DNA from: Eubacteriales bacterium
GTDB taxonomy: Bacteria > Bacillota > Clostridia > Oscillospirales > CAG-272
Assembly: GCA_045535375.1 (NCBI GenBank)
Contig: JAZSLM010000007.1
Location: forward strand, 15,322-79,321
Direction of reading: 5' to 3'
DNA: 64,000 nucleotides
Part shown: positions 15,219 through 56,306 of the stretch, in pieces
Layout: the number at the start of each line of letters is the position of its first letter
Position numbering within the stretch: position 1 is the first letter of the stretch
Translations under genes and position numbers: made by a program
The notes under the pieces: generated by a model
Told to the model about the DNA's origin: nothing
Databases searched by the model: none
The model's input: the letters and a program-made list of their open reading frames with translations, nothing else

Positions 15219-15220
15219 AT

Positions 15221-37026: not shown

Positions 37027-37580
37027 ACCAAAATACCCTCCTTTTGAAGTTTTTCCGCAAATTTGCGGCGTGTGCGGAAAAGGATCGTTTTCACTTTTCC
37101 CTCGCTGAATCCCATATCGGCGGCGACGTGAGCGACCTTTTCGCCGAAATAGTGGTGCAGGACGAAGACGTCGCGCTCGTGCTCGGGCAGGCTTTCAAGA
37201 AGCTCGTTGAGTATCTCGCCCGCGCGGGCGGTTTCGAACTGCGCGATAAGGTCATAGGTGTCGGGGATCGATGCGACAAATTCCTCGCCGATCTCGGTGA
37301 AGCTCTTGCACCTGCGCCATACGTTTTCCGAGCGCGTTTTCTTCATGGCGAGGTTGCGCACGATCTTTGCAATATAGGCTTTCAGATTCTGCGGTCTTTC
37401 GGGCGGAATGTTGTTCCAGAGCGCCAGAAGAAGATCGTTGAGGCATTCCTCGCGGTCCTCGCGCAAGGAAAGAATATTCGACGCGACCGTGTGGCAAAAG
37501 TTCCCGTACTTCGCCTGCGTTTCCTCAAGCGCCTTTTCATCACGCTCAAAAAGCATTTCGATTATCTTCTCATCTTGCAT
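37023..37580 (-). CDS. ECF-type sigma-70-family factor (module 2)
   Basis: 185 aa from MQDEKIIEMLFERDE, with AGGAGG 8 nt upstream. The track start at 37622 is a GTG inside the conserved leader motif. Confidence 0.8.
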   Translation of the reverse strand: MQDEKIIEMLFERDEKALEETQAKYGNFCHTVASNILSLREDREECLNDLLLALWNNIPPERPQNLKAYIAKIVRNLAMKKTRSENVWRRCKSFTEIGEEFVASIPDTYDLIAQFETARAGEILNELLESLPEHERDVFVLHHYFGEKVAHVAADMGFSEGKVKTILFRTRRKFAEKLQKEGILV

Positions 37581-37730
37581 CAGCTTCGCCTCCTTGTCAG
37601 TTTTTTCAAAGGGTCCCTTCACCTATCAAGTACCACCAAGGTGTATTTGGGTTTCAATCTTTTCGACAATTTTCAAAATTTTGTGGACTTGCACAAAGTG
37701 CCAAGCCTTATTTTGTGCAACTTCACAAAT

Positions 37731-37759
37731 ATAATAGCATATTATTTTTGATTTGTCAA
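37731..37759 (-). promoter_or_regulatory. SigA-type promoter for sigma module 2
   Basis: On the minus strand: TTGACA (37759-37754), 17-nt spacer, TATTAT (37736-37731). Confidence 0.55.
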
Positions 37760-37770
37760 TAAAAAGAACG

Positions 37771-37792
37771 CCCGCAGGCAAAAGCCTGCGGG
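37771..37792 (-). terminator. Terminator of the giant LRR gene
   Basis: cccgcaggc-tttt-gcctgcggg followed by a T-run on the minus strand. Confidence 0.8.
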
Positions 37793-37801
37793 AAAAAGTT
37801 T

Positions 37802-40800
37802 TTAATTCAGCGGATATCTTTCAAAAGGGTACCAGGTCACTTCGGTTGTTGAGATTATACCCGCCATATTGAGATATCGATCAAGCGACGAAAGACTACC
37901 ATGGACGTAATATTTCGCGTTTTCGGTTCCATCGCCTATGACGTGGCAGATATTATTGATCTTACAATCGCCGTCAGAAAATTCGAGCCTTGCATCGCCG
38001 TAGGAAATACCCTCTGCGGTATTGTCGTTCCACTCGAAAGTGCCGTCGATCTTGATATCGTCCATGTTCCTAAACGTAAAAGCATAGCCGTGGACCCTGC
38101 CTTTTTCCTCGTGAAGGACGAGCATATCGCCCACATCGCCGGTCACCACGACCTCTACCTCACCGTCAACATCCATATCTACAACGGTATATTTCACGTC
38201 GTCGCAATAAGCGATCTCTTTTCCGTTATAGGGGAACTCGAACTCATCAAGGAAAATCTCGTTTGAATCAAGAATGAACTTCGATTCGTTATTGAGCACC
38301 ATGCGGTATGCATCGGGAAGATTCGCAAGATCGGCATAACCTGCCATAACGTCTCCATCAGAGCATCGTATAACGGTGAAGGGACAGTTTTCGTTCCAGC
38401 CATCTTGCTTTTCGATAGCAGTCCACTCGGCAAGCGTGCCGGCAAAGTTAAAATCTGTAAGGCTCGTACAATTTTTGAAGCAAGATCCCTTTATTTCGGT
38501 AACGCTTCGCGGAATCGTGATGCTAGCAAGAGAAATGCAATCTGTGAAAGCCGAATAATTTATACTCGTCAAGGTATCGGGAAGTGTCACGCTCTTAAGA
38601 CTTGTGCAACCTTCAAAGATATAATTCAGCAATGTCGTTCCAGAAGGTACAACAACACTTTCAAGACTCGTGCATCCCTTGAAGGCAGATGCGGAAAGCT
38701 TACCCGTTTTCGGAAGATCGATATTCTTCAACGAGGTACAATTTATAAAACCGCCGACCCGTTCCATTTTGGAAGGCAATTCGATATACTCAAGCGACGT
38801 GCATCCACTGAAAGCACTGTTTATCTTCGTCAGACTGTCGGGGATCTTTATCTTTTTAAGGTTGACGCAGTTCTCGAATGCACCGTCATAGATAATGAGC
38901 ACCCCGTCGGGGATCGTTAATTCAGTAATAGCGCTACATCCGGCAAAAGCTCTGTCACCTATTCTTAAAACGCTTCCATCGCTCGGTATAACACTGCCGT
39001 TGCAGCCCATAAAGATCGTTTGGCTTTCTTCATGAATAATACAATTATCAACGCTGTAATATTGAGGGTGATCAGAATCGATCTCCAGCTCTTTAAGATT
39101 ACGGCAGTTTAAAAATGTGTCCGGAAAGAAAGTGGATATTGTAGCAGGAATATAAACTCCCGTGATATTCTGATTATTCTGAAAAGCCGTTCTGTCGATC
39201 GCAGTCACGGGAAGTCCGTTGAAGGAGGAAGCAATAACTAAACGTTTATCGGTACACGTTCCTATACCGACGAGAGTCGCGCTCTTTTTGTCTTCATTGA
39301 TCTTATATTTAAGCCCTGCGCTAACATTGTATTCGGGCTCGGAGTAGAGTTTGACATCGCCGTCAGTGCAGAAGACCTTGGTTGCGGGGATTCCCCGATA
39401 CCATTCCGAATTCCATTCTGCACCCTCTTTTCCGACACGGCTCCACTCAGTCGTGGTTCCACCATATGACACGCTTGCAAGCTTTGTGCAACCGTCGAAC
39501 GATGCAGCGGCAAGAAGCTTAAGTCCGCGCGGGAATCTGACGCTTTTAAGCGAGGCGCAGTTCATAAAAGCATTTTCCTGGATCTGCTCAAGACCCTCGC
39601 CGAGAGTGAGCGTGGAAAGCTTTGCGCAATCGCTGAAGGCGCGCTGCCCTATCCACTTGGCGCTGTCGGGAATGAGGATGCTTTCAAGGCTCTCGCAATT
39701 CGCAAACGCCCAGTCCTGAATATACTCGAGAGTCGAGGGCAGAGTGACCTTTTTGAGGCTCTTGCAAAGGTAAAACGCCTCGTCCCCAATGATGGTCACA
39801 CCCTCGGGGATGGCGATCTCCTTGAGAGAGGAACAGCCGCTGAAGGTATGCGATCCGATTTCCGTAATGCCCGCGGGGATATTGATGCTCGTAAGAGCAG
39901 TGCAGCCGTTAAACGCGTCGGAGCCGAGAGTTTTGAGATTCTCGGGCATAACGACACTCTCGAGCGAGGTGCAGAACGCAAAGGCATCCTCTCCGATATA
40001 CTTAATCGCGTTCGGAATACTAATGCTTCGGATGTTTTTATTGCTTCGGAATACCCCATCCGCAATGGCATACACGGGTACGCCGTTGTAGGTTGCGGAA
40101 ATAACGATATCTTTATCGGTACAGGTGCCGATACCCTCAAGCACCGCATACGAATCGTATTGAACATACAGAAGCCCGCGGCTGCCGTCGTATTCGTAGA
40201 GTTCAAGGTCTCCGTCCGAGCAATGAATAACGGAAAATGCCGCGCCGTCGCTCCACATCTCTGTTTTTTCGATAGCCTTCCATTCCGCCATCGTGCCCTC
40301 ATAGCTAACCTTTGTAAGCGATTTGCACTCAAAAAATGCAAGCGCGCATAAAAGCTTGGTCGTTTTCGGGAACGTCAGCTCCATAAGCTTCGGACAATCC
40401 TCAAATACCGAGCCGCTCAAGGTTTCCAAACTGCTTCCTAAGCTGATGGTTTCGAGAGACTCACATGAGGAAAACGCACCAAATCCGAGATAAGTAAGAC
40501 TATCGGGCAAGTTGACTTTCTTGAGCGACTCACATCCGGCGAACGCATAGGCATCGATCCGTTCAATTCCTTCGGGAATAGTCAGCTCGGTCAGCCAATC
40601 ACAGCCGTGAAAGGAGAATTCGCCTATCACAGTGACGCTTCCGTCCGTGGGAATAACGCTTCCCTTACAACCGTGAACGATGGTTTTTGTTGCCTTTTCG
40701 ATAAGGCAATTTCCTGACGACATATATTTCGGATTGTCTTTGTCAACCTCTATAATTACGAGGTTCGGACAGCCGATCAATGATTCGGGATTTATTCCGG

Positions 40801-42685
40801 TAACATTTTTTGAAAAATAGACGCTGACGAGATCGGGCATATTGTCAATTCCGCCGACAGTCAGAACCGAATCGGATAAAGTCATGCTCGTGACATTGCT
40901 GATTTTTGAAAAGCTGTAATCAACGGAGGTCACCGGCAGACCGTTATAGGTAGAAGCGACGATGATCTCTTTGTCGGTGCAAGTGCCAATACCTACAAGC
41001 ACGGCGTGATCTCCCTCAATTCGGTATTCAAGTCCGCGCGAGCCGTCGTATTCGATGATCAGATTGACGTCACCGTCGGAACAATGGATGACGGTGAAGG
41101 GACAGCCATCGCTCCATTCATTTCCTTTGGCAAGCTTCAACCACTCGTTTACAGTACCGTCAAACGAAAACTTTGTAAGTGATCTGCAATTCTTGAAGGC
41201 ATAATGCGATATGTCTATGCATTTTCCGGAAATAACTATGTTGTTAAGCTTGACACAATCCTCAAAGGCACTTGTATCGATACTGCCTACACCCTTCATA
41301 ACGATGCTTTCAAGAGAAGTGCAACCCTTGAAGGTTTCTACGCCGAGATAATTCATACCGTCGGGCAGAACAATGGTTTTGAGAGAGGTGCAGTTTTTGA
41401 AGGTTTCAGCTTCGCCGAAATTTTTTAAGCCGGAGGGGAGCGTTATTCTTTGGAGAGAACTGCAGTTTGCGAATGCGCGTTCTTCTATAAAGGTAACGCT
41501 CTCGGGGATGATAACACTGACTATCTGCGAATTACCGTTGAAAGCATTGTAGAATATTTCCGTAACGGGTAAACTGTTATAGGTGGAAGCGACAACGATC
41601 TCGGTATCGGTACAGGTTCCGATCCCGAAAAGCGAGGCGGTTTTACCATCGTTGTTTACCTTATACTCAAGCCCTTGCGAGCCGTCGTATTCGGGTTCAT
41701 CGGCATTATAAGGTGAAATTTCAACATCACCGTCGGTGCAGTGGACTACGGTGATCGCGCTCTTTGCATTCCAATCCAAGTCCTTTTGGATCTTGTTCCA
41801 TTCTGTCTTTGTGCCGAGGTAATGGAGCTCGCGCAAGGCGGAACAATCATAAAATGCACCCAAAACGATTCTTTCGACTTCGTTTCCGATAATAACCTTT
41901 TGGAGATTGATGCAATTCGCAAAAAGTCCGGTCTGGATCCATTCGAGCGACTTCGGGAGGGTGATCTCCGTAAGCGCAACACAGTTTTCAAATGCGTCTG
42001 CGCCGATGTAAGAGATGCCATCGTGCAGTTTAACACTTTCAAGCCCCGTGCAGTTCTTGAAGGCGCGCATATCTATCACGGTTACGCTTTCTGGGATCGT
42101 TACGGTCTTGTATTTGACATATTCGGCTAAAGCCGCCTCGCTTATGCGAGTGACGGGTACGCCGTTCCAGACCGATGCGACGATGACGTTTTCATCCGTG
42201 CATATCCCGCGATGGAAGAGCATCGCGCTCTTTCCGTCCTCGTTCATCTTGTATTCAAGACCATAGCTTCCATCGTGCTCGGGTTCGGGCTCAGCCGTCG
42301 TGCCGTCGTAGAGGGGCGCGGTGGTTTCGGGGTCGGTATTGACCGAGGTTTCGGGCGCGGGGACAGTGGTTTCCACGGGCGGGGTCTCGGGGTGGGTCAG
42401 CTCGGGGTCGGTATCGGTGGTCTCGTCGCCGGTGAAGAATGCGACGATGTCGGGAAGATGGTTCGCAAGATAGGTTATTGTGGGTATGGCGGCGACAAGC
42501 AGGGCTATGCAAGCCGCAAGCGCAAGTAACTGCTGCAGGGTCCTTTTGCGGCTGGGTGTGGCAAAATAGACCTGACCCGTCGGGCGGGGCTTGATCTTCT
42601 CGGCGGCTTCCTCGATGAAGCGGACGTCGATGTATTCAAGTGCCTCGATCAGCCTTGCGGTTTTATGGTTCTTTTGCCGTTTCAT
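37802..42685 (-). CDS. Giant (1627 aa) single-pass membrane protein: putative anti-sigma N-domain, TM segment, five BspA-type LRR cassettes, C-terminal DxDxDG-containing domain (module 3)
   Basis: The N-terminus is MKRQKNHKTARLIEALEYIDVRFIEEAAEKIKPRP. The TM segment is LLALAACIALLVAAIPTITYL. Five cassettes are each bounded by YDGSxGLEY...GTCTD...YNGLPVT and ...EWxxIxKxxxW...VIHCSDGDV. Confidence 0.85.
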   Translation of the reverse strand: MKRQKNHKTARLIEALEYIDVRFIEEAAEKIKPRPTGQVYFATPSRKRTLQQLLALAACIALLVAAIPTITYLANHLPDIVAFFTGDETTDTDPELTHPETPPVETTVPAPETSVNTDPETTAPLYDGTTAEPEPEHDGSYGLEYKMNEDGKSAMLFHRGICTDENVIVASVWNGVPVTRISEAALAEYVKYKTVTIPESVTVIDMRAFKNCTGLESVKLHDGISYIGADAFENCVALTEITLPKSLEWIQTGLFANCINLQKVIIGNEVERIVLGAFYDCSALRELHYLGTKTEWNKIQKDLDWNAKSAITVVHCTDGDVEISPYNADEPEYDGSQGLEYKVNNDGKTASLFGIGTCTDTEIVVASTYNSLPVTEIFYNAFNGNSQIVSVIIPESVTFIEERAFANCSSLQRITLPSGLKNFGEAETFKNCTSLKTIVLPDGMNYLGVETFKGCTSLESIVMKGVGSIDTSAFEDCVKLNNIVISGKCIDISHYAFKNCRSLTKFSFDGTVNEWLKLAKGNEWSDGCPFTVIHCSDGDVNLIIEYDGSRGLEYRIEGDHAVLVGIGTCTDKEIIVASTYNGLPVTSVDYSFSKISNVTSMTLSDSVLTVGGIDNMPDLVSVYFSKNVTGINPESLIGCPNLVIIEVDKDNPKYMSSGNCLIEKATKTIVHGCKGSVIPTDGSVTVIGEFSFHGCDWLTELTIPEGIERIDAYAFAGCESLKKVNLPDSLTYLGFGAFSSCESLETISLGSSLETLSGSVFEDCPKLMELTFPKTTKLLCALAFFECKSLTKVSYEGTMAEWKAIEKTEMWSDGAAFSVIHCSDGDLELYEYDGSRGLLYVQYDSYAVLEGIGTCTDKDIVISATYNGVPVYAIADGVFRSNKNIRSISIPNAIKYIGEDAFAFCTSLESVVMPENLKTLGSDAFNGCTALTSINIPAGITEIGSHTFSGCSSLKEIAIPEGVTIIGDEAFYLCKSLKKVTLPSTLEYIQDWAFANCESLESILIPDSAKWIGQRAFSDCAKLSTLTLGEGLEQIQENAFMNCASLKSVRFPRGLKLLAAASFDGCTKLASVSYGGTTTEWSRVGKEGAEWNSEWYRGIPATKVFCTDGDVKLYSEPEYNVSAGLKYKINEDKKSATLVGIGTCTDKRLVIASSFNGLPVTAIDRTAFQNNQNITGVYIPATISTFFPDTFLNCRNLKELEIDSDHPQYYSVDNCIIHEESQTIFMGCNGSVIPSDGSVLRIGDRAFAGCSAITELTIPDGVLIIYDGAFENCVNLKKIKIPDSLTKINSAFSGCTSLEYIELPSKMERVGGFINCTSLKNIDLPKTGKLSASAFKGCTSLESVVVPSGTTLLNYIFEGCTSLKSVTLPDTLTSINYSAFTDCISLASITIPRSVTEIKGSCFKNCTSLTDFNFAGTLAEWTAIEKQDGWNENCPFTVIRCSDGDVMAGYADLANLPDAYRMVLNNESKFILDSNEIFLDEFEFPYNGKEIAYCDDVKYTVVDMDVDGEVEVVVTGDVGDMLVLHEEKGRVHGYAFTFRNMDDIKIDGTFEWNDNTAEGISYGDARLEFSDGDCKINNICHVIGDGTENAKYYVHGSLSSLDRYLNMAGIISTTEVTWYPFERYPLN

Positions 42686-43239
42686 ACGATGATCCCCTCC
42701 TTTCCGAGTCTGTCCGCAAGCCGCTGGCGCGTGCGCATCAAGAGCGACTTAACCTTGCTTACCGAAAAATCCATATCCTCGGCGACTGCACTCACGCTTT
42801 CGCCGAAATAATAGCGGAGGACGAAGACCTGACGCTCGTGTGCGGGGAGCGAGGCGAGGAAATCGTTGATGATCTCGCCCGCGCGGGCAGCCTCAAACTG
42901 CTCGGCGAGGTCGGCGGTGTCGGGAATCGTTTCAAGAAACTCGTCCCCCACCGTCAAAAAGCTTGCGCATCTCTTCCAGGTGCTCATTGCCCTCGTTTTG
43001 TTATAAGCTATGTTGCGAACTATTCTTGAAATGTATGATCTCAGACTTTCGGGTCGCTCGGGCGGGATCGCGTTCCAGAGCGCAAGCAGCACGTCGTTGA
43101 CGCACTCCTCGCGGTCCTCGCGGATAGCAAGGATATTCGCCGCGACCGTGTGGCAAAACGCCGAATATTTCTTCTCGATCTCGCCAAGCGCCGCTTCGTC
43201 GCGCTCAAAAAGCATCTCGATGATTTTTTCGTCAGTCAT
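42682..43239 (-). CDS. ECF-type sigma-70-family factor (module 3)
   Basis: 185 aa, MTDEKIIEMLFERDEAAL..., roughly 60% identical by eye to the module 2 sigma. Confidence 0.85.
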   Translation of the reverse strand: MTDEKIIEMLFERDEAALGEIEKKYSAFCHTVAANILAIREDREECVNDVLLALWNAIPPERPESLRSYISRIVRNIAYNKTRAMSTWKRCASFLTVGDEFLETIPDTADLAEQFEAARAGEIINDFLASLPAHERQVFVLRYYFGESVSAVAEDMDFSVSKVKSLLMRTRQRLADRLGKEGIIV

Positions 43240-43333
43240 AAGTTCGCCTCCTTTCGTAAAGTTCCCTTCACTTTACAAGTAACTAAAAAACGGGGATCGG
43301 TTGCAGGGTTTTGAGAAAAAAGTTGAAAAATTT

Positions 43334-45472
43334 TTATCCGCCGGGGTAGTAAGCGCGGATCGGATAGATCGCGAGGTGTTCGTAAACCGCTTTTTCGCCC
43401 AAGAGAAGCACCTCGCGTGCCTCAAATTCCTCTTTTGTGGCTTTTTCGTTGTCGACAAAGTAAGTCACGCTTCCGTCCTCACCCATCTCTTTTCGCGTTA
43501 TGTCGTGCCAAACGACCTCGACACCGTCGAAGCTGAGCCTTGCGGTGCCGTGCGTTCTGCCCGCGTTTGAGGTGAAATCGACGTTTCCGTTTGTTTTAAG
43601 GTTCAAAAATGATCTGAAATCGAACAAATACCCGTAAACCTTACCCTCAAATTCGCGCAGGACGATCTCGTACTGCAGTGAGGAAAGGATGAGCTCGGGA
43701 TCCAAGTCGCCGTCAAGATCGCAGACGGCATAATTGTAAGAGCCGATTTCCGCGCTCGGATAATCAAGTATGGTGTCCTTGAAGTATCCCTCCGGCTGAA
43801 AACCGAATTTGGGAATGTACGTTGTTTCATTGAGAAGGACCTTGAGGAAGACCTCGGGTATGTCGGGGTAGGTCAGGCGGGGTACGCTGATCTCGCACGT
43901 GTAGCGGTCGATGTAGATCCTGTCCTCGACTGCTTCATCGGGGCGAACGAGAAGATACATTTCATCGGTTGCATAACGGACGAAATAACCGCTTTTTATC
44001 GGTGCCCAATACTGACGTGCGAGCTCGATAGCCGCATCATGGGAGATCGACTCCGCAAGGACTTCGCCGTCCGAGCATTTTGTGGACTCAAAGGCAGCGC
44101 CCTCGTTCCATCTTTCCTGCGTGGCAACCCATTTCCACTCTGCAACGCTTCCCCCAAAGCGAAGTTCCTTGAGCGCAGTGCAGTCCTTGAAGGTATACAT
44201 TCCGATATATTTAAGGCTCGCGGGCAGATCGATGACCTCAAGCGAGGTACAGCCCGCGAAGGTGTGACCGACAAAGCGCTCAAATCCGTCGGGCAGAGTG
44301 ACGGCTTTCAGCATCTCGCACTCGGCAAAAGCCGCGCCGAGTTCTGTCACGCCTGAGGGAATTACGATATTTTCAACTGCGCAACCCTTGAAGGCTTCGC
44401 TGTCGATCAGGGTAAGATTTTTCGAGAGAGTGACGTTTTTCAGATTTTTGCAATCGGAGAACGCACCGTTGTATATCTCTGTGACCGAGTCGGGAATAAC
44501 TATCGAGGTAAGCGCGGTGCATCCCTTAAATGCCGATTGACGGATGGTTTTCAGAGTTGTCGGCAGAGTTACGCTCGCAAGATTCGTGCAACCCTCGAAA
44601 GCCGAGGTGTGAATATCGGTCACGCCCTCGGGAATATTGACCGATTTCAGCAGAAGATTGCCCGCGAAAGCGTGCGCACCGATCGATTTGACGCTTCCGT
44701 CAGCGGGAATTTCAGCCTTTCCGCCGCCGAGGACAAGCTTGCCCGTCGATTTTTCGATCAAACAATTGTTTTTAGCAAAATATTTCTCGTTGCCCTCAGC
44801 AACCTCGATGAACTTAAGCGCGGGGCAATTCATAAATCCGATGCTGAGGCTTCCCGTGACGTTCTCAAGCGACGCGGGGAGAAAGATCTCGCTCAGATAG
44901 GGGCAGTTCAGAAACGCTTCGCTTTCGATATAGGTCACGCCCTCGGGGATCGTCACAGAGGTCATACCCTTGACTTCGAAAAACGCTCTGTCCCATATCT
45001 CGGTGACAGGCAGACCGTTGTATGTTGCGGGAATGATGACCTCGCTGTCTTTGCAGGTGCCGATGCCGACCAAGACGGCGTAGTCTGAAAACTGGCGGAA
45101 TTCGAGACCTTCCGAAGCCTCGGGTTCACCCGATATACCGCAAATAGTACAAGTATTATTGACAAACCTGTGACCGTAAGGGGGCTGGGGTTCGTGCTTG
45201 GTGTAACCACAAAGGTGGCAGTAGGATTCTATATTGTATATTTCGGTACAATTCGGCACGATCTCTCTAGTGATCATATCAGGATGAGTGCATTCCGTTG
45301 TTTCAGACACGGAAGTGCTTCCTTCGGCAGTAGTTTCAGGCGAAGTTGTTACCGTCGGGGATGCGGTAACGGACGGAGGCGCGGTCGTGTCCTCGCCGCC
45401 CTCGCCGCGACAGCCTGTAAATACAAGCGCAAGCGCGAGCAGTATAACTAAGGTGATATTTATTTTTTTCAT
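43334..45472 (-). CDS. Lipoprotein with a Cys-rich zinc-ribbon-like segment, one BspA-type LRR cassette and the same C-terminal domain as the giant protein
   Basis: The start is MKKINITLVILLALALVFTGC at 45472, with AAGGAG 8 nt upstream. The 940-aa track ORF is an antisense extension. The C-terminal 200 aa align with the C-terminus of 37802..42685. Confidence 0.8.
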   Translation of the reverse strand: MKKINITLVILLALALVFTGCRGEGGEDTTAPPSVTASPTVTTSPETTAEGSTSVSETTECTHPDMITREIVPNCTEIYNIESYCHLCGYTKHEPQPPYGHRFVNNTCTICGISGEPEASEGLEFRQFSDYAVLVGIGTCKDSEVIIPATYNGLPVTEIWDRAFFEVKGMTSVTIPEGVTYIESEAFLNCPYLSEIFLPASLENVTGSLSIGFMNCPALKFIEVAEGNEKYFAKNNCLIEKSTGKLVLGGGKAEIPADGSVKSIGAHAFAGNLLLKSVNIPEGVTDIHTSAFEGCTNLASVTLPTTLKTIRQSAFKGCTALTSIVIPDSVTEIYNGAFSDCKNLKNVTLSKNLTLIDSEAFKGCAVENIVIPSGVTELGAAFAECEMLKAVTLPDGFERFVGHTFAGCTSLEVIDLPASLKYIGMYTFKDCTALKELRFGGSVAEWKWVATQERWNEGAAFESTKCSDGEVLAESISHDAAIELARQYWAPIKSGYFVRYATDEMYLLVRPDEAVEDRIYIDRYTCEISVPRLTYPDIPEVFLKVLLNETTYIPKFGFQPEGYFKDTILDYPSAEIGSYNYAVCDLDGDLDPELILSSLQYEIVLREFEGKVYGYLFDFRSFLNLKTNGNVDFTSNAGRTHGTARLSFDGVEVVWHDITRKEMGEDGSVTYFVDNEKATKEEFEAREVLLLGEKAVYEHLAIYPIRAYYPGG

Positions 45473-45589
45473 ATTTTTCTCCTTGAATGTAAGTCGAAAA
45501 AGCATCAGCCTTCTTCTCACTAAAATTATATAATATCCGCGCGCCCTTGTCAATAGTTTTTTACTTGAGGGAAATAAAGGCAGTTTACA

Positions 45590-45618
45590 TTGACAAATCG
45601 GGGTCGGAGTGGTATAAT
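45590..45618 (+). promoter_or_regulatory. Consensus SigA promoter for the FAD oxidoreductase
   Basis: TTGACA (45590-45595), 17-nt spacer, TATAAT (45613-45618). Confidence 0.7.
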
Positions 45619-45652
45619 TATATCGAAAATATCTTTGGAGGACATTATAATA

Positions 45653-47512
45653 ATGAAGAGAATTGCCGAAAGATTTGCAGAAAAAAGCTATGACTTCATC
45701 GTTGTCGGCGGCGGAATGTCGGGAGTTTGTGCCGCTATTGAGGCAGCTCGCTCGGGTGCGAGAACCGCGCTCATCCACGCTCGTCCCGTTCTCGGCGGCA
45801 ATGCATCGAGCGAGATCAGAGTACACATTTCGGGCGCCGATCACGGTATGGAGAAGCCCGACTACGCCGAAAGCGGTCTGCTTTACGAGCTGATGCTCGA
45901 AAATAAGGCGCGGAACGAGCATTTTTCCTACTCGATCTGGGATATGATCCTCTTTGAGGCGGCAAAAAACACCGAAAATCTCACCGTTTACTATAACACC
46001 GTCCTCTACGACTGCGAGACCGAGGGCGACCGCATCACCGCCGCGCTCTGCGTTCAGGAGACGACCGAGATGCGATACCGTCTGACAGCGCCCCTCTTCG
46101 CCGACTGCACGGGCAACGGCACGCTCGGCTACTACGCGGGTGCGGAATACCGCCAAGGAAGCGAATCAAAGGCTGAAACCGGCGAGATCGACGCCCCCGA
46201 GGTAGGAAACAACGAGCGAATGGGCAACACCATCTACTTCCGCGCTCGGAATATGGGGCATCCCGTCAAGTTTACGCCTCCGTCCTTTGCCAAAAAATAC
46301 ACCGAACACGATCTGCGATTCCGCATGCACTGCGCGAACCACAAGGTCGATTACTCGGGCTGCAAGGACCCCGAAAAGAACGAGGCTTGCGGCGGAGTTT
46401 CGGCTCGCGGAGTCGATTACGGCTACTTCTGGATCGAGCTGATGGGCGACAAGGACGACATCATCACCGATTACGAAAACATCCGCGACGAGCTTGTCGC
46501 GTCGCTTTACGGCGTCTGGGATCACATCAAGAACGGCGGCGACCACGGCGCGGAGAATCACGAGCTTGAATGGGTCGGAATGCTCCCCGGCACGCGCGAA
46601 TCGCGCAGGCTTATGGGTGATTATATCCTCGACGAAACCGATATTCTTGAAAACCGTATTTTTGACGATGCAGTCGCCTACGGCGGTTGGTGCGTCGATC
46701 TTCATTGCCCGCACGGTCTGCTCGACACCGACATCATGCCCTCGGGCGACTGCCGCTTCTACGACGGCGTTTACACGATCCCCTACCGCTGTTACTACTC
46801 GAAAAACATTGAAAACCTCTTTATGGCGGGCAGAAATATATCCGCGACCAAGCTCGGAATGTGTTCGACGCGCATTATCGGCTGCTGCGCGATCGGCGGA
46901 CAGGCTGTCGGCGCGGCTGCCGCGCTCTGCACGAAATACTCCTGCGACCCGCGCGGACTCGCTCCCCATATTTCCGAGCTCCAACAGCTTCTTCTCCGCC
47001 GCGACTGCTTTATTCCCGGATTCAAGAATGAAGACGGGCTCGATCTCGCAAGAGATGCAAAATTTACCGCGACCTCGCAGAAAGAAAACTGCGAGCCCGC
47101 GAAAGTCACCGACGGCATCTCTCGCCGACTTGGCGAGGACTCGCACGGCTGGGTCTCCGACGGAATCCGCGAGAGCGGCGAGGTGCTTACGATGTCGTTT
47201 GACTCGGCAAAAGCTCTTTCCGAGATCGCGCTGACCTTTGAGTCGGATTTCAACTACCCCATCCGCGTGACGATGGCGCCGAACCGCCAGGTTCAGCAGC
47301 GCCCCGGCGTCCCTGCCGAGCTTGTCAAGGATTATGATATCGTTTTCAAGAAGGACGGCGAGCGCGTAAAGACTATCGAAATTCGCGATAATCATCAAAG
47401 ACATAACGTACATAAATTTGACTCTACCGAGTGCGATAGCGTCGAGTTCCGCATTTATTCGACCAACGGCGCGAAGGATATTACGATTTTTGAGGTAAGA
47501 GCTTACGAATAA
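45653..47512 (+). CDS. FAD-dependent oxidoreductase (pfam12831-like) with a C-terminal discoidin/F5-8-type-C-like domain
   Basis: The start is MKRIAERF, with GGAGG 9 nt upstream. The dinucleotide-binding motif is DFIVVGGGMSGVCAAIEAARSG. The C-terminal beta-sandwich-like segment ends ...ITIFEVRAYE. Confidence 0.75.
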   Translation: MKRIAERFAEKSYDFIVVGGGMSGVCAAIEAARSGARTALIHARPVLGGNASSEIRVHISGADHGMEKPDYAESGLLYELMLENKARNEHFSYSIWDMILFEAAKNTENLTVYYNTVLYDCETEGDRITAALCVQETTEMRYRLTAPLFADCTGNGTLGYYAGAEYRQGSESKAETGEIDAPEVGNNERMGNTIYFRARNMGHPVKFTPPSFAKKYTEHDLRFRMHCANHKVDYSGCKDPEKNEACGGVSARGVDYGYFWIELMGDKDDIITDYENIRDELVASLYGVWDHIKNGGDHGAENHELEWVGMLPGTRESRRLMGDYILDETDILENRIFDDAVAYGGWCVDLHCPHGLLDTDIMPSGDCRFYDGVYTIPYRCYYSKNIENLFMAGRNISATKLGMCSTRIIGCCAIGGQAVGAAAALCTKYSCDPRGLAPHISELQQLLLRRDCFIPGFKNEDGLDLARDAKFTATSQKENCEPAKVTDGISRRLGEDSHGWVSDGIRESGEVLTMSFDSAKALSEIALTFESDFNYPIRVTMAPNRQVQQRPGVPAELVKDYDIVFKKDGERVKTIEIRDNHQRHNVHKFDSTECDSVEFRIYSTNGAKDITIFEVRAYE

Positions 47513-47595
47513 CACAGCGAAAAGTTTTGATCAAACTTTTTCAGAAAAGTGTGTTTGCCTTCGGCAAACGGCGGAGTATGAGGCAGAGCCTCATT

Positions 47596-47690
47596 TCAAT
47601 GCGAAGTGCGGCTCTGGCGGTTTTCCGAAGGAAAATGGAGGCGTGAGCCGACAAGACAGAGTCGTCATTTGCCGAAGGTAAATATTTCAG
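47596..47690 (+). ncRNA. Copy A of a structured repeat of about 85 nt (candidate small RNA or REP-like element)
   Basis: About 85% identical to 56081-56165. It has three helices (outer gcggctcTg/cAgagtcgt; ttttcC-gaa-Ggaaaa; atttgcc-gaa-ggtaaat). Differences between the copies are compensatory or wobble-compatible. Confidence 0.45.
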
Positions 47691-47831
47691 CTTTTGCTTC
47701 AATGCTTCGAAAATCTGAAGCTCTGCTTCTGATTTTCGGACAGAGTCGATACTTCCCGAATGTAGGGAAGTATCGACTTTGTCACCCCACCGCATCGGTT
47801 GAATAATACAAGCTTATCGAGGAGAATGTAC

Positions 47832-48539
47832 ATGGAAATCACCGAATCCAGACTTGCATCTCTTTTTACCGAACTATCAGCGCAAGGACTGCAACAATAT
47901 GAAGAAATCTTAAAAAATAAAGACGGAATTCTCCAAAGCTGCACTTCCTTCAAATATGGAATCGGAGGATTAAATCTGCCCGCACGCGGATATTTTTGTC
48001 CGTCTCTTATTATGGATACAGTTGTCGGTAACTGTTCAAGAGGACGGCTTGTCTGTAAGCCGAAAAGCACTACACATCCCGATTTCAAATACGGATTCAC
48101 AAAAGAGGGCGAGCTTGTCTATATTGAAAGCCTTTACGAAGGCAAAAAAGTTTTAACCGAGTACATTTTGCGCGAGAATAACGTAATAACAGGCTTTACC
48201 TTTAACGACGAAGATGTATTGGTAAACTACTCACGCGAACAATACCAAAACGGAAGACTTATTGCTTATTCGCTTGTCTTTTATGACGAAATACTAGGAA
48301 AAGCGTACAGCCTTCACAACGAAACTTACAATATAAATGACCGCCGAATGACGGCAAGCTTTTTTGACTACGAGCCGAAAACGGGTAAACTTTCAAGCTC
48401 ATGCCGTGGGGATTATTATTGCTTTTATATTGATAACGAAGGTTATTTAATGTCATATTATCCCTCAAAAAACGGAATCGACCCTATTGATGATCGCGTG
48501 TTTGAATGCGCACCGAAACGTAGGCGCATAATTGAATAA
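47832..48539 (+). CDS. Low-GC orphan protein, unknown function
   Basis: 235 aa from MEITESRL, with GAGGAG 7 nt upstream. Codon third positions are A/T-rich, unlike the neighbours. I recognise no motif. Confidence 0.55.
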   Translation: MEITESRLASLFTELSAQGLQQYEEILKNKDGILQSCTSFKYGIGGLNLPARGYFCPSLIMDTVVGNCSRGRLVCKPKSTTHPDFKYGFTKEGELVYIESLYEGKKVLTEYILRENNVITGFTFNDEDVLVNYSREQYQNGRLIAYSLVFYDEILGKAYSLHNETYNINDRRMTASFFDYEPKTGKLSSSCRGDYYCFYIDNEGYLMSYYPSKNGIDPIDDRVFECAPKRRRIIE

Positions 48540-48568
48540 CTTTATTTAGAACGACAAATAAAAGATTC

Positions 48569-49010
48569 GTGCTCTCAGACTTCCCCCTTCCGGTTTACGG
48601 AAGGGGGAGTGAGGGGGATGGTCCCGTGCGGATTCGGCGGTTTTCCGTAGGAAAACGGCGGTGTTTAACCGCCGAGACGGATTCGCCGCTTGCCGAAAGG
48701 CAAGCATTTTGCCGACACAAAATTATTAGGATATCGGCAAAGATTCTGAGCAGGCGCAAAATTATCTCCGAGGCCCCGCAGGAAGAATAAAATCGCTGTA
48801 GATTAGCGCGCCCGAATGGGCGCGCGGGGTGAAGGAGCGAAAACCTCCCGCGAGGGGAGGTTTTACTCCTTCCAAACGGTCGGCAGGGGCGCCGCCCGTT
48901 TGAAGCACGGAGAGTGTTTCGCCCTCTGCGGAGGGCGACTAAAGAAACTTTTTGAAAAAAGTTTCTTTAGAATCTTCAAAAACTTCCCGCTGATTTCTGT
49001 CGAATGAAAG
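48569..49010. repeat. Dense array of at least eight unrelated GC hairpins, including divergent copy C (48625-48716) of the structured repeat
   Basis: Examples: cttcccccttccg-gttta-cggaagggggag, ttttcc-gta-ggaaaa, cggcgg-tgtttaa-ccgccg, cttgcc-gaaa-ggcaag, gcgcgccc-gaat-gggcgcgc, aaacctcccc-gcga-ggggaggttt, cgccctc-tgcg-gagggcg, aaagaaacttttt-gaaa-aaagtttcttt. Confidence 0.75.
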
Positions 49011-49019
49011 GAAAAATTT

Positions 49020-50300
49020 ATGGACATTTCCGCAATTCTTAAAAATCTTGAGCACTGCCCTTGCGGCAGGGTGCACACCGTAAACATCAAAGCCGTCGAG
49101 ATCGGCGATGGTGTGCTTGCGCGAACTGCCGAAATCTTGCGCGGTGCGGGATTTCCCCGCCGAATTCTTGCCGTTGCTGACAAAAACACTCTTGCGGCTT
49201 CGGGAAATATCATAAATATACTCGAAAACGGCGGTTTTTCGGTAAAGCTCAAGCTTTACGACGATCTGCGCGAGCCGACTGTCGAGCGAGTGAATGAAAT
49301 TTGTAAACTTTGCGCCGATGTCGAAGCCATTCTTTCGATCGGCACGGGATCGCTCAACGACATCTGCCGCCGCGCGGCGCTCCTATGTGACCGTGAATTC
49401 GCGATCTTTGCAACCGCGCCCTCGATGGACGGTTTCGCTTCGGGAACCTCGCCGATAATCGAAAACGGCTTCAAGGCGACTCTTCCCGCGCGTCAGCCTT
49501 CGGTCATCATTGCCGACACCGCCATCCTCGCCGCCGCGCCCGCGCATCTCAAAGCCGCGGGATTCGGCGACATTATCGGAAAATTCACCGCCCTTGTCGA
49601 TTGGCGCGTGGCGCATCTGACCGTCGGTGAATACTATTGCGAAAATATCGCGAATCTCGTCCGCGAGGCGCTTCGCAGAATTTGCTCGATGGCTCACCGC
49701 GTTTCCGCAGAAGATGCCGAAACCGCGGGCACGATCATGGAGATCCTCGTTTTCACGGGACTTGCAATGAAGCTTGCCGAAGCCTCCCGTCCCGCCTCCG
49801 GCGCGGAGCACATGATCTCGCACATGATCGGCATGCGCCGGCTCGCCGAGGGTAAGATCTCGGATTTTCACGGCAAAAAGGTCGGCGTCGCCACCGTGAC
49901 CCTTTGCGATCTGTATCATAAGTCAACCGAAATTACACCGAATTTCCGTCCCGACACTCCCGATTGGGAGCGCGTTTACACCGCGTTTGGCGAAAACATC
50001 AAGGGAAACATCATCCGCGAGAATTCGCCGCCTATCACCGACCGCCTCGATCCCGCAGTCATAGCTTCGCAGTGGCAGGAAATCGGCAAGATCGTCCGCG
50101 AGGAGCTGCCAACGCAGGCTGAACTTCTCGAGATTATGCACGCGGCAGGCGCGGCAACGACCTACGCAGAGATCGATACCGACGAAGCTCTCGCCCGCGA
50201 CTGCATCGTCTATCATCCCTACATGCGCGACAAGATCGTCCTCTCGCGCATCCTCCGCATGACAGATATTGATCCCGCGGAGTTTGTAAGATTCAAATAA
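49020..50300 (+). CDS. Iron-containing alcohol dehydrogenase-family protein, sn-glycerol-1-phosphate dehydrogenase-like (AraM/EgsA-like)
   Basis: 426 aa with GTGSLNDICR and ASGAEHMISHMIG metal-site motifs. Confidence 0.6.
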   Translation: MDISAILKNLEHCPCGRVHTVNIKAVEIGDGVLARTAEILRGAGFPRRILAVADKNTLAASGNIINILENGGFSVKLKLYDDLREPTVERVNEICKLCADVEAILSIGTGSLNDICRRAALLCDREFAIFATAPSMDGFASGTSPIIENGFKATLPARQPSVIIADTAILAAAPAHLKAAGFGDIIGKFTALVDWRVAHLTVGEYYCENIANLVREALRRICSMAHRVSAEDAETAGTIMEILVFTGLAMKLAEASRPASGAEHMISHMIGMRRLAEGKISDFHGKKVGVATVTLCDLYHKSTEITPNFRPDTPDWERVYTAFGENIKGNIIRENSPPITDRLDPAVIASQWQEIGKIVREELPTQAELLEIMHAAGAATTYAEIDTDEALARDCIVYHPYMRDKIVLSRILRMTDIDPAEFVRFK

Positions 50301-52648: not shown

Positions 52649-55180
52649 TCAATCAGCAATCAGGGTTTTACTCCACTGAATTTCCGCAACATCATCTTTG
52701 CTTATAATATCCCTTGCATAAGCTTCGGCAAGCCTATAGAAAACGCCGTCTTTGTAAATATACATAGGCTGGCTGTTCGGGAAACTAAATCTGTAACCGG
52801 CAACATCCTCGGTCTCGATCATCTGCGAATACATATACGGTCCATCGATCATTACAGCATACGCGCCTCCATCAAACTTTCCGTAGCATCTTACGCCAAA
52901 GGTATATTTCAGTTCCTTGTCGTTTTCGATATGCTCCCAAACTATCTCGCGCTTCTCGGCATCGGTCAGTTCGATGGGGGAAGGGTTTTCGGGGTTATCC
53001 GCAATCTTTAATTCATCGGGTATCGGCTCTTCCTTACGGCCGCCGGTGAAACAGTAGTAGTAATAAGCCAGATGCCTCTCGTGCGCCTTGGCAACCTCCT
53101 GCTCGCTGACAATGCCCCGCTCATAAGCTACCGAAAGCTCTGTAACAACACCGTCCGAATATACAAGAGGTAACGAATCATATCCTCCAAGAACAAATCT
53201 GTAACCTGCAATTTCGGTCGTGGTGAAAGCTATTGCAATATCCCTTTCTTTTGCTATAAATATCTTTCCGCCTATCTTTCCGTAATAATGGTACTCATCA
53301 AATTTCGATGATCTGAAAAACCTGTGCGGGTGATAGCCTATGCTGCTGTAGGTGTATTCATAAGCCTTGTCATAGTCTTTGGTAGATTCAAATCTCTTCT
53401 CAACGTACCACTTTTCGTAAGCCTCGTTGACGCTCTTCATTTCGTCTTCCTCGAGCGTTTCAATATCGGGCGTGAAAGAAAGGATGTCATAATCGTAAGT
53501 GATAAGCGGGAGATAATGCTCGGTGAAAGCATCGTGAAAGGCTTTGGCTTCTTCCGGAGTGAGCAGGTCATCGGGCACGTTGGCGTTTTCATACCATTTG
53601 TAACCCTTTATGAACCATACTCTTCCTTCATAAAAGTCAAAATCATACCCACACAGACTAAAGTTGCATTTTCCCGACATATTCTCTAAGATTATAAAAG
53701 TATTGCCGTACTTTCCGAAATAATAATGTGTCCACGGGGTTCTTCTCATAGCCCTTTCCACATCGGAGAAACGGCGGAAGTTTTTGCTCTTACCGGGATA
53801 AGTTGCATTCCACGCATCATTTATCCGCTCAAGGTCCTCCTCGGTTATAACGTAATCGTAACCCGTCGGCTTGATCTCTTTGATATCGCCGCTTTCAAGA
53901 TCGATCTCGACCCAAACACGTCCGCTGTCTATTCCAAGCTCGGGGAAGGTGCCGCAGAAATCGCCTATCATTTTTCCGCAGGCAATGATCTGTTCGGAAG
54001 GAGGAATACTTGCTATTTTCTCGTTTTTATATATCTCGCGGTCATCCTTACCGTCAAGAGCGCAATAACGCAGCACGTCGGATTCGGTTGTTCCATAAGG
54101 ATCAGAGATTGGAGTGTTTGACAGAAGGTAATTCACCCCGCGATGTTCGAAAGGATAGTAATATATGCCGTCGTTCATAAGCCAATAGCTCGCGATCCCA
54201 CTGATAAGGATTTTTGATCTTCCGCTCTTGACGTCAACGGCAATAAGATCATAACCTATACGTTTGCTTGCAAGAAAATACAGCTTGCCGTCAAGGTATG
54301 AGGGATTTGTCGCTCTCTCGTAATCGGTCTTCTCACCGTTCCAAAGTATTCGTTCGTTTCCGGTTTCGATATTATATGATTTGATCACCGATTTTTCCGT
54401 GATAGTGTCGACGGAAACTTCAGAACGGGTCTTGATGGTTATGATCTCCCCGTCCGCGATCACAACGAGCTCTTCTTCTGCTTCGAAAGTTTTGACAATC
54501 TCTTCCTCACCGCCCAAGAGCGGAATTCTGCATAACTGACCCCGCGAATTTATGATGTTGAGCGATCTGAAGTAGTAGTAATAATCGCCGTAAACATAGC
54601 CTTTTCCGACGGTATATTGATATGAGATCTTGCAGAGATCGACAGATTGCATCGTTAAAAGATCAAGTGCCGCGACGTAGCAGTAACGCTCGTCAATCGG
54701 AAGGGAACTGTCCTCATAAATATAGTAAAGCTTTCCGTCCGCGATCTGGGAAAGACATTTGACCTCTTTGGCAGGCATCCCTTCAGCCTTGCCGCTGAGA
54801 TCGCGGAACTCGCCCGTTTCGGGCAAATAGCGTGTAAGGTGTCCTTTATCAAGGAAATAGACCTCATCACCGAAGACCTGATAACCCGTTCTGATCACTT
54901 CTGACGAATCGGTGCTTTCCGAGGTCGTGATCGAGCCGGGATCGAGATCGATAATGCCCATGATATAGGATACGATCGGAAACACCGCGCCTATAAGCAT
55001 AACGCAGGCAGCGAGGAGGGCGGCGTATTTGACCGAGCGGAGGATCGTTCTTTTGCGCGGTGCGGGCGCGGCGGTGTCGGGAATCGAGATGTCGGAGAGC
55101 ACGTCGGCAAGGACTTCCTCGTCGATATAATACAGAGCCTCGAGCAGGCGTCTGTTTTCGGGTTTTATATTGCTTCTCAT
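52649..55180 (-). CDS. Single-pass membrane protein: putative anti-sigma N-domain, TM segment, propeller-like domain, three copies of the YGKFG/GYxF module (module 4)
   Basis: 843 aa. The N-terminus is MRSNIKPENRRLLEALYYIDEEVLADVL. The TM segment is YAALLAACVMLIGAVFPIVSYIMGI. The start overlaps the sigma stop by 4 nt. Confidence 0.8.
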   Translation of the reverse strand: MRSNIKPENRRLLEALYYIDEEVLADVLSDISIPDTAAPAPRKRTILRSVKYAALLAACVMLIGAVFPIVSYIMGIIDLDPGSITTSESTDSSEVIRTGYQVFGDEVYFLDKGHLTRYLPETGEFRDLSGKAEGMPAKEVKCLSQIADGKLYYIYEDSSLPIDERYCYVAALDLLTMQSVDLCKISYQYTVGKGYVYGDYYYYFRSLNIINSRGQLCRIPLLGGEEEIVKTFEAEEELVVIADGEIITIKTRSEVSVDTITEKSVIKSYNIETGNERILWNGEKTDYERATNPSYLDGKLYFLASKRIGYDLIAVDVKSGRSKILISGIASYWLMNDGIYYYPFEHRGVNYLLSNTPISDPYGTTESDVLRYCALDGKDDREIYKNEKIASIPPSEQIIACGKMIGDFCGTFPELGIDSGRVWVEIDLESGDIKEIKPTGYDYVITEEDLERINDAWNATYPGKSKNFRRFSDVERAMRRTPWTHYYFGKYGNTFIILENMSGKCNFSLCGYDFDFYEGRVWFIKGYKWYENANVPDDLLTPEEAKAFHDAFTEHYLPLITYDYDILSFTPDIETLEEDEMKSVNEAYEKWYVEKRFESTKDYDKAYEYTYSSIGYHPHRFFRSSKFDEYHYYGKIGGKIFIAKERDIAIAFTTTEIAGYRFVLGGYDSLPLVYSDGVVTELSVAYERGIVSEQEVAKAHERHLAYYYYCFTGGRKEEPIPDELKIADNPENPSPIELTDAEKREIVWEHIENDKELKYTFGVRCYGKFDGGAYAVMIDGPYMYSQMIETEDVAGYRFSFPNSQPMYIYKDGVFYRLAEAYARDIISKDDVAEIQWSKTLIAD

Positions 55181-55734
55181 ACCGTGATACCTCCCTTTTT
55201 CAGCTCCTCGGCGAGCTTTTTTCTTGTGCGGAGAAGCGACATTTTGATGCGGCTCTCGCCGTAGCCGGTGAGCGCGGTGATCTGATTGATCTCAAGACCC
55301 ATCCAATAGCGCAGGACGAAGATCTTTTTGTCGCTTTTATTCAGCTTTTGCAGGGCGTCGCTGATGAGCTTGCCCGCGCGCTTTGCCTCGAATTCGGCGG
55401 CGAGGTCGGTGCCGTCATCGAGCATCGAGAGGAATTCGTCGCCCACGATCTGCACTCTGCCGCCTCGCTTCCAGGCATTCTGACCGCGCGAGATCTCGTG
55501 GGCGCGGTTTCGCACCGATTTTCCTATGTAAGCACGCAGGTCGCGCGGGCAGTCGGGCGGAATATTCTGCCAGAGCGCGAGCATAACGTCGCTGACGCAT
55601 TCCTCGGCATCCTCGCGGATGGCAAGAATGTTCGAGGCGATGTATCTGCAAAGCGCGCCGTATTTCTTTTCGGTCTGCGCGAGCGCTTCCTCATCACGTG
55701 CAAAGAAGAGTTCTATTATTCTTTTGTCATCCAT
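55177..55734 (-). CDS. ECF-type sigma-70-family factor (module 4)
   Basis: 185 aa from MDDKRIIELFFARDEEAL. The alternative Met at 55743 abuts the SD. Confidence 0.8.
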   Translation of the reverse strand: MDDKRIIELFFARDEEALAQTEKKYGALCRYIASNILAIREDAEECVSDVMLALWQNIPPDCPRDLRAYIGKSVRNRAHEISRGQNAWKRGGRVQIVGDEFLSMLDDGTDLAAEFEAKRAGKLISDALQKLNKSDKKIFVLRYWMGLEINQITALTGYGESRIKMSLLRTRKKLAEELKKGGITV

Positions 55735-55900
55735 TTTTGTCATCTCCTTTCACTAAACAAGAAGCGTTTTGCCGAGCCCGCGTCACCGATATTTTCAAAT
55801 TTCAGCTTTCTGCATAAATCTTCACGGCGTTTTTTGTGCAATTTGTTGTTCTGATATTATATTATCATATTTTTTTGGAGTTGTCAAGAGGATTTGATTT

Positions 55901-56215
55901 GCGACCTCTGCGGAGGTCGCGCGATATGCTCGCTTCGCGAGCGTGATATATCTTCGACACGATATGCCTTACGGCACGATATATTTCGCCGCGGCGAAAT
56001 GTTTCGGTGAATTTCCGCGGAGCGGAAATTTTCCTATTAATATCACGTTCGCCTGCGGCGAACATATCGTATCGCCATAAGCCGTGCGGCTCCGGCGGTT
56101 TTCTGCAAGAAAATGGAGGCGGAAGCCGACAAGCCGGAGTCGTAATTTGCCGAAGGCAAGTATTATATCGTGTGCCAACATATCGTATGAGCGCAGCGAA
56201 TATATCGTGTTTACA
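55901..56215. repeat. Hairpin array with the word TATATCGTG in divergent orientation, surrounding copy B (56081-56165) of the structured repeat
   Basis: Reverse copies: GTGATATATC at 55943, CACGATATG at 55958, CACGATATAT at 55975. Forward copies: ATATCGT at 56064 and 56180, TATATCGTG at 56164 and 56201. Interleaved hairpins: gcgacctc-tgc-ggaggtcgc, gctcgc-ttc-gcgagc, ttcgcc-gc-ggcgaa, tttccgc-gga-gcggaaa, gttcgcc-tgc-ggcgaac. Confidence 0.75.
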
Positions 56216-56306
56216 CATCTGATAATATAATATTTCCGTATGGAATATTGATCTCTGTAACGCCCAATTATATTATTGCAATTTACTTTGCCAACACGTA
56301 CAGATT

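Follow-up and report, generated by a model that had tools for sequence, protein, structure and literature searches.

A probable non-autonomous, single-strand-folded repeat in the intergenic mosaic of uncultured ruminant-gut Clostridia

A structured repeat unit of 80–82 nt, present in three copies in the window (the whole stretch of 64,000 nucleotides that was analyzed), is probably a non-autonomous, single-strand-folded interspersed repeat and a module of a lineage-specific mosaic in uncultured ruminant-gut Clostridia. The decisive result is its presence or absence at orthologous loci, where the element is gained or lost as one exact, seamless unit. The identity of the element lies in the fold adopted by one strand only, and the mosaic repeat system in which it occurs makes up much of the long intergenic regions in this Clostridia group. 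It represents a new family within the broad class of bacterial interspersed structured repeats and is not a demonstrated regulatory RNA. Such repeats are well studied in Proteobacteria (REP/REPIN–RAYT) and in a few Firmicutes (bcr, BOX, RUP), but in the uncultured Clostridia that predominate in the gut of ruminants they are practically uncharted.

Copies in the window and their predicted fold

All three copies in the window were on the plus strand:

47606–47685, plus strand: copy A, short-P3 form, covariance model match of 94.7–97.5 bits
48626–48707, plus strand: copy C, long-P3 form, covariance model match of 92–99 bits
56084–56163, plus strand: copy B, short-P3 form with a GGAA loop, covariance model match of 91–93 bits

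The initial annotation had described copies A and B as aligning end to end at roughly 85% identity and had mentioned a third, more divergent copy. Copies A and B were recovered within a few bases of where it had placed them, with 83% identity over 92 nt and 86% over 81 nt, and the third copy corresponds to copy C, which has 74–76% identity to each of them. The 17-base core pattern matched three times in the window, against 0.27 matches expected by chance. The edges of the element were located by the depth of blastn matches from other loci, which jumps at 47606–47608 and falls at 47682–47685.

Each copy folds on the plus strand into a three-way junction (P1–P3) with an abutting 3' hairpin (P4). 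The predicted fold of copy A, with the general form of each part given after the semicolon, is as follows:

47608–47616 / 47657–47665, plus strand: P1; 9 bp, in copy A GCGGCUCUG / CAGAGUCGY
47617–47620, plus strand: J1/2, GCGG; NCGG, unpaired
47621–47626 / 47630–47635, plus strand: P2, loop GAA; UUUUCC-NNN-GGAAAA, 6 bp with a triloop
47636–47642 / 47647–47653, plus strand: P3, tandem G.A/A.G and GUGA loop; 7 bp, two forms
47654–47656, plus strand: J3/1, AGA; AGR, unpaired
47667–47673 / 47677–47683, plus strand: P4, loop GAA; YUUGCC-GNA-GGCAAR, 7 bp, then AY

The first form of P3, UGGAGGC-loop-GCCGACA, includes tandem G.A/A.G and has a GNRA loop in 17/18 cases, while the second, CGGCGGU-GUUYA-RCCGCCG, is paired at all positions, as in copy C (CGGCGGU-GUUUA-ACCGCCG, paired throughout). 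The loops of P2 and P4 are mainly GAA, GUA or GCA. The ends of the unit are 5'-GYGCGG ... GGCAARY-AY-3', P4 included; the pairing partner of the 5' end is internal (positions 55–64), not the 3' end. Downstream of P4 come AY and mixed sequence; there is neither a U tract nor a canonical terminator.

The compensatory changes pointed out in the initial annotation were present in the alignment: the closing pair of P2 changes from C:G to U:A (UUUUCU-GCA-AGAAAA in copy B), one pair of P1 from U:A to C:G, and P4 shows changes from G.U to G:C and from U:A to U.G. In copy C, P1 has A:U and C:G replacements and P4 is GCUUGCC-GAAA-GGCAAGC. Single-sequence RNA folds of the plus strand of the three copies gave z-scores of –2.5, –3.8 and –3.9, and the minus-strand fold was weaker for copies A and B. 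Parameters for DNA produced the same fold as those for RNA. From a plain MAFFT alignment, not fitted to the structure, RNAalifold recovered P1, P2, the core of P3 and P4.

A coding reading was rejected: the 66-aa GTG open reading frame at 47606–47806 over copy A is not kept, because one P3 form is 1 nt longer than the other. Mechanical open reading frames (66–117 aa) also span the hairpin arrays and copies A and B (47606–47806, 55865–56218 and 56007–56222); these are repeat artefacts that could be mis-annotated as genes.

Extent of the family and covariation of the helices

When one genome of each species was scanned with a strict pattern, 13 true copies were recovered; they belong to MAGs of uncultured Clostridia/Eubacteriales obtained from the guts of goats and sheep and from related samples. 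A looser pattern added 15 copies from metagenome contigs, and a covariance model search of the same loci found additional ones. The sampling obtained in this way is phylogenetically narrow and pattern-biased. Altogether 36 full copies and one truncated copy scored 75–107 bits and the next match 23.5 bits, leaving no covariance model match between 75 and 24 bits, and the family is therefore sharply bounded. A second-round covariance model detected no more distant or decayed copies in 364 kb of sampled loci; their absence is not what purely selfish DNA usually shows, and it is consistent with a host function. The strict pattern matched one to three times per MAG, at least five copies were present in MAG JAZQXP01, and three in the 64-kb window.

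No similarity to the element was found in plasmid and phage collections, and the single viral pattern match (L048) fails the covariance model. A scan against Rfam, suggested as a check in the initial annotation, gave no family on the copies: with Rfam 15 at the gathering threshold the whole window contained only a tRNA, and at E ≤ 10 no match over 47400–49100 overlapped the copies.

Pairing statistics were calculated from 32 distinct sequences among the 35 aligned. In these, 93.1% of the helix cells were paired, compared with 31–48% when the partners were slid, and double-sided changes occurred at eight pairs. The non-Watson–Crick cells included 56 G.T/T.G against one A.C/C.A, and the fold is thus specific to one strand. 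Also the G.U pairs that had been proposed to exist only in the plus-strand RNA proved real and one-stranded, the P1 wobble G8.U60 being present in 29 of the 32 copies. Paralogues at only 74–86% identity retain the fold; the fold of one strand is kept among copies as diverged as orthologous genes of different species, and in the most divergent copy (L017) P1 and P4 are preserved by multiple double changes. P2 varies at its closing pair only, though the metagenome pattern had left its inner three pairs free.

The helix alleles are reshuffled: all four P3 × P4 combinations are present, and the P2 variant UCUGCAAGA is found on both P3 backgrounds. The covariation therefore largely consists of a few alternative helix 'alleles' recombined among copies, and there are fewer independent compensatory events than the cell counts suggest. 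It is real, but weaker evidence for selection at the RNA level than its appearance implies.

Several of these properties are shared with families of paralogous small RNA genes or processed stable RNAs, in which the junction would carry the function and P4 would serve for termination or for protection of the 3' end, and which would be duplicated and lost like multicopy sRNAs. The one-strand fold with G.U far in excess of A.C, the GNRA loops and conserved P1 wobble, the fold kept in old paralogues and the lack of decayed copies all agree with such an origin. So do the tandem copies, in the same orientation within one intergenic region, of four loci (L004, L006, L014 and L027), which resemble tandem sRNA paralogues. 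However, the copies have no conserved upstream promoter: information in the flanks reaches background at –4 and +3, the 5' flank holds at most 0.3 bit per position beyond –3 and is heterogeneous from –4, and another module often abuts the element within 0–10 nt. A sigma-70 scan found no plus-strand promoter directly 5' of copies A, B or C, P4 leads into AY and mixed sequence instead of a U tract, orthologous sites do not conserve copies, and Rfam has no match. The sRNA option of the initial annotation has thus gained no support so far, and we consider an sRNA family unlikely.

Still less probable is a new RNA that is catalytic or that binds a ligand or a protein; a self-cleaving ribozyme, like those present in multiple dispersed copies in Clostridia, would be an example. 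The compact junction with near-invariant unpaired nucleotides and a near-invariant G.U pair would suit such a molecule, as would loop sequences that are free within GNRA and GNA and a dispersed, multi-copy, orientation-independent distribution like that of small ribozymes. Against this, no Rfam ribozyme model matched even at E ≤ 10, and since not only the pairing but also the sequence of P1 and P2 is conserved, the junction does not stand out by its conservation; the narrow and pattern-biased sampling also bears on how that conservation is read.

Three further candidates were rejected. Group II intron ends share a GUGCG start and an AY end, but 80 nt cannot hold domains I–VI, the features of domain V are missing from P3 and the GU at the start varies. 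For the hammerhead, twister-sister, pistol and hatchet ribozymes there was neither an Rfam match nor a matching junction consensus. The integron attC reading was discarded, as the element has no R''/R' core sites (RYYYAAC ... GTTRRRY), its ends being GYGCGG ... AY, and the window contains no recombinase or integrase.

Orthologous sites, intergenic mosaic and genomic context

Homologues of the Fe-ADH/G1PDH gene of the window led to seven orthologous loci with 82–88% nucleotide identity to the window. The local gene map was set by these loci together with a codon model:

45590–47512, plus strand: FAD-dependent oxidoreductase
47832–48539, plus strand: 235-aa gene
49020–50300, plus strand: Fe-ADH

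Copy A is in the 3' region of the oxidoreductase gene and copy C in that of the 235-aa gene. Copy A begins approximately 90 nt past the stop codon of the oxidoreductase and upstream of the predicted promoter of the next gene, while copy C has the 235-aa gene on one side and a terminator-like module (module T, below) on the other.

In two of the orthologous loci, L045 and L046, the gene order and the other intergenic sequence are the same as in the window, and copies A and C are exactly absent. A comparison of insertion sites had been proposed with the initial annotation for strains; between these related genomes it supplied filled and empty versions of both sites:

Site A, filled (window): CAATGCGAA[80 nt]TTCAGC; empty (L045, L046): CAATGCAAA-AGC-TTCAGC
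Site C, filled (window): GGTCCCG[80 nt]ATTTTGCC; empty (L045, L046): GGTCCCG-ATTTGCC

At site A three nucleotides (AGC) replace the copy in both loci. None of the seven orthologous loci (L044–L047, L049–L051) had a copy at site A or site C, and in L049 a copy lies in an adjacent intergenic region instead. Junctions of the C type are also present at paralogous places, empty in L002 and L014 (GGTCCCG|ATTTGC) and filled in L006 and L007; the flanks of the latter two are 91% identical and their module content is different. Comparison of filled with empty sites showed no duplication of the target, the flanks have no repeat in common, and the unit lacks both a terminal inverted repeat and a target consensus. 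The direction of the change at sites A and C, insertion or deletion, was assigned by parsimony only.

The 235-aa open reading frame at 47832–48539, between copies A and C, has no Pfam match, shows atypical codon usage and is an indel in its own right: L044 and L049 lack it, L047 has a 374-aa open reading frame in its place, and L045 and L046 have a homologous gene of 241 aa between inverted copies of module M.

The intergenic regions 47508–47787 and 48539–49018 were covered end to end by blastn matches from loci with unrelated genes, and the order and orientation of the matching modules vary from locus to locus. The element is one module of this mosaic, and it often occurs in tandem and beside one of a few recurrent partners. 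The others in the window are:

47515–47573, minus strand: module K with a P4-like hairpin and no three-way junction, GTTTGCC-GAAG-GCAAAC then ACTTTTCTGAAAAAGTTTGATCAAAACTTTT
47686–47787, plus strand: module M, directly 3' of copy A, with a 19-bp hairpin at 47739–47783
48545–48625, plus strand: C-rich/G-rich hairpin module, directly 5' of copy C, ending ..GGTCCC
48826–48944, no strand assigned: module T, blastn depth of about 20 from other loci
48945–48985, no strand assigned: module H, A/T-rich palindrome CTAAAGAAACTTTTTGAAAAAAGTTTCTTTAG, blastn depth of about 15
55899–56210, plus strand: array of a short word (GATAT / ATATCG) and varied GC-rich hairpins, with copy B embedded and homologous flanks in L002 and L014

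Module T ranks second among the modules in how widely it is shared, and elsewhere it is often directly adjacent to the element. It consists of nested hairpins, including a bidirectional terminator-like stem (GAAGGAG..AAAACCUCCC-GCGA-GGGGAGGUUUU..CUCCUUC) and a hairpin with a CUGCGG loop. The hairpin module at 48545–48625 forms the left half of a recurrent insertion site and is common to L002, L006, L007, L013, L014, L045 and L046. Module M was found in L044–L047, L049, L050 and L014, in either orientation. The sequence of module K follows P4 in 13 of 33 copies elsewhere, and a weak covariance model match of 22–23.5 bits lies on the minus strand at 47549–47624. Within this region the 17-nt hairpin 47553–47569 (GTTTGCC-TTCG-GCAAAC) is an insertion relative to the orthologous L045; an indel can thus consist of one hairpin alone. 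On the minus strand, this hairpin resembles P4 of the element followed by module K.

Many copies are embedded in arrays in which a short conserved word is followed each time by a different GC-rich hairpin, with a period of 20–24 nt. The word differs by locus: it is ATATCG around copy B and in L002 and L014, ATCATCATTC in L004, L005, L009, L018 and L027, GTGAAGT/TTCAC in L010, and GTTAAT also in L014. The hairpins have GNA or UNCG loops, and their stems differ yet stay paired. Arrays are located at 55899–56080 and 56164–56210 in the window, at 1550–1640 in L004, at 3610–3995 in L010 and at 5570–5665 in L014. To our knowledge no equivalent has been described for such arrays of a word and variable hairpins.

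No copy overlapped an open reading frame accepted by a self-trained codon model (0/36). Of the genes 5' of the element, 16 have its orientation and 12 the opposite one; for the genes 3' of it the numbers are 16 and 13, and a cruder gene map led to the same result. The neighbouring open reading frames showed no enrichment, 83 of them having matches to 74 different Pfam families, and no linkage to a gene family was seen. L007 carries copies on both strands, and the element strand split about evenly with the sign of the local GC skew, a noisy measure in loci of at most 8 kb; at that resolution a replication-strand bias was not seen. Because of these context and orientation data across the family, a leader or riboswitch is excluded, and the plus-strand bias seen in the window, which the initial annotation had pointed out, is not a property of the family.

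The same data weigh on the explanation as a cis-acting regulatory RNA (riboswitch, leader or attenuator) for the downstream gene. The conserved junction nucleotides NCGG and AGR and the sense position of copies A and C within a plus-strand gene run would be compatible with it. However, only 16 of 29 downstream genes share the orientation of the element, the neighbours span 74 Pfam families, and copy A is situated upstream of the predicted promoter of the next gene. Copy B, flanked by two minus-strand genes (ECF sigma 55177–55743 and BspA-LRR 56600–57955), is antisense to both. Furthermore, tandem copies are spaced 127–181 nt apart and orthologous genes do without the element. A cis-regulator is close to refuted, and we assign it the lowest probability of all the explanations.

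The window is ordinary chromosome, with genes for RsmB, a PASTA kinase, RsgA, rpmH–rnpA, ECF sigma/anti-sigma/BspA-LRR units, a GntR regulator and Fe-ADH. A gene for a transposase, a recombinase or an HUH protein was found neither in the window nor, among the Pfam families listed, in approximately 360 kb of sampled loci, and there was no RAYT gene among the open reading frames of the window and 26 loci.

Some other features of the window were recorded alongside. In several paralogous units, the gene for an ECF-type sigma factor precedes one for a large protein, putatively an anti-sigma factor or a leucine-rich-repeat protein of the BspA type:

30761–32556: ECF sigma/anti-sigma/BspA unit
37023–42685: ECF sigma/anti-sigma/BspA unit
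42682–46156: ECF sigma/anti-sigma/BspA unit
55177–55743 with 52649–55180: ECF sigma/anti-sigma/BspA unit
57952–58566 with 56600–57955: ECF sigma/anti-sigma/BspA unit

A 70-nt inverted repeat (8673–8742 / 8968–9037; 97% complementary, with a 225-nt AT-rich spacer) lies just upstream of the gene at 9088 and is common to one other locus; it could be a MITE or an invertible segment. The 3' end (15193–15227) of the tRNA gene at 15144–15215 is repeated about 170 nt downstream at 15364–15400 with 92% identity, which is the pattern left by integration at a tRNA gene. The genes rpmH (63171–63305) and rnpA (63431–63832) are at the right end of the window and the GC skew of the plus strand is negative across nearly its whole length, which together suggest an origin-proximal chromosomal region replicating leftwards.

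Possible routes of mobility and comparison with known repeat families

Clean filled and empty sites that lack the usual transposon signatures pose a concrete question, namely how the element moves. The fold may be the feature recognized when the unit is copied or removed, and two routes appear equally possible. In the first, the element would be mobilized as a single strand by a nuclease or transposase acting in trans. The seamless sites, the one-strand fold and the stable GNA/GNRA loops favour this route; such loops are very stable in ssDNA and RNA alike, and d(GCGAAGC)-type minihairpins are exceptionally stable in ssDNA. The missing flanking consensus and skew bias speak against it, as does the lack of a candidate enzyme in the sampled loci. 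In the second, gene conversion would take place between paralogous mosaic arrays with repeat flanks. This agrees with the repeat flanks themselves, with the same junction being filled and empty at paralogous places and with the reshuffled helix versions, but a few flanks look unique, for example the upstream one of L043, and L017. Our search of the literature on the minihairpin and on mosaic repeats in Clostridia found nothing specific.

If co-transcribed in the sense direction, the element would give a very stable structured block that, by analogy with REP/BIME and bcr1 (PMC3733652, PMC3184786), might act as a 3' exonuclease barrier or transcript insulator. Any such effect would not be general, because copy B is antisense to both of its neighbours. 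In either form, as RNA or as ssDNA, the one-strand fold with its GNRA and GNA loops is a specific, testable feature.

In a bolder and rather doubtful reading, a hairpin-module system that is specific to this lineage and has not been described before would build and remodel intergenic regions via a structure-recognizing single-strand enzyme, with the element as perhaps its most striking product; alternatively, the element would be a mobile new class of functional RNA, protein-binding or catalytic. It is prompted by the arrays of words and GNA/UNCG-loop hairpins, the indels of whole hairpins and the seamless 80-nt unit with a three-way junction. The reading as a non-autonomous repeat and mosaic module remains the preferred one. 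In practice, such mosaics break MAG assemblies and create spurious open reading frames, and they can serve as strain markers.

Of the known families, MITEs (such as Correia/nemis, ERIC, RUP and BOX) are likewise short, non-coding, structured and intergenic with presence/absence polymorphism, and BOX is also modular; unlike them, the element is without terminal inverted repeats and target-site duplication. The miniature derivatives of IS200/IS605 (PATEs) share seamless insertion and excision, a structure on one strand and stable GNA/GNRA-loop hairpins. However, their insertion point is 3' of a fixed tetra- or pentanucleotide, with a bias to the lagging-strand template, whereas the flanks of the element have no consensus and its strand no association with skew (in the noisy loci of at most 8 kb), and no TnpA was seen in the sampled loci.

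The closest relatives by behaviour are two. One is bcr1, an interspersed repeat of about 155 bp in the Bacillus cereus group. Its distribution is not conserved between related genomes, and compensatory changes maintain its multi-helix fold at the single-strand (RNA) level (PMC3184786). Like the element, it is a small non-coding repeat of Firmicutes chromosomes with a patchy genomic distribution and compensatory changes preserving the fold. The differences are that bcr1 is flanked by 5-bp direct repeats (target duplication), of which there are none at the element, that it is about twice as long and forms two independent stem-loops instead of a three-way junction and hairpin, and that it is known to be transcribed while the element is known here from sequence alone; the two have no sequence similarity.

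The other is REP/REPIN and BIME of Enterobacteria, Pseudomonas and Stenotrophomonas, mobilized by RAYT. These too are strictly extragenic, GC-rich structured repeats, clustered with other motifs into mosaics of variable order and orientation; neither they nor the element have terminal inverted repeats or target duplication, and both are thought to act as single-stranded folds. Roles of REPs in mRNA stabilization and termination are documented (PMC3733652, PMC3184786). Yet a REP is a single imperfect palindrome of 20–40 nt with a GTAG or CGTC tag, while the element has 80–82 nt, four helices and no tag, the CGTC within it being a chance occurrence inside P1 in two copies only. REPs have tens to hundreds of copies per genome, and the element apparently tens at most, not hundreds (three in the 64-kb window, at least five in one MAG); no RAYT was seen in the window and 26 loci. 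In the survey of GTAG/CGTC repeats (PMC3733652), the words Firmicutes and Clostridia have no occurrences. The 'sRNA / REP-like' label of the initial annotation consequently stands in its REP-like part as far as function is concerned, i.e. for a mobile hairpin that is extragenic, multi-copy, exactly present or absent and folded on one strand, and does not stand for REP as defined by its tag and its 20–40 nt palindrome. The element lies outside the defining features of each named family, and in function it is like REP/BIME and bcr1.
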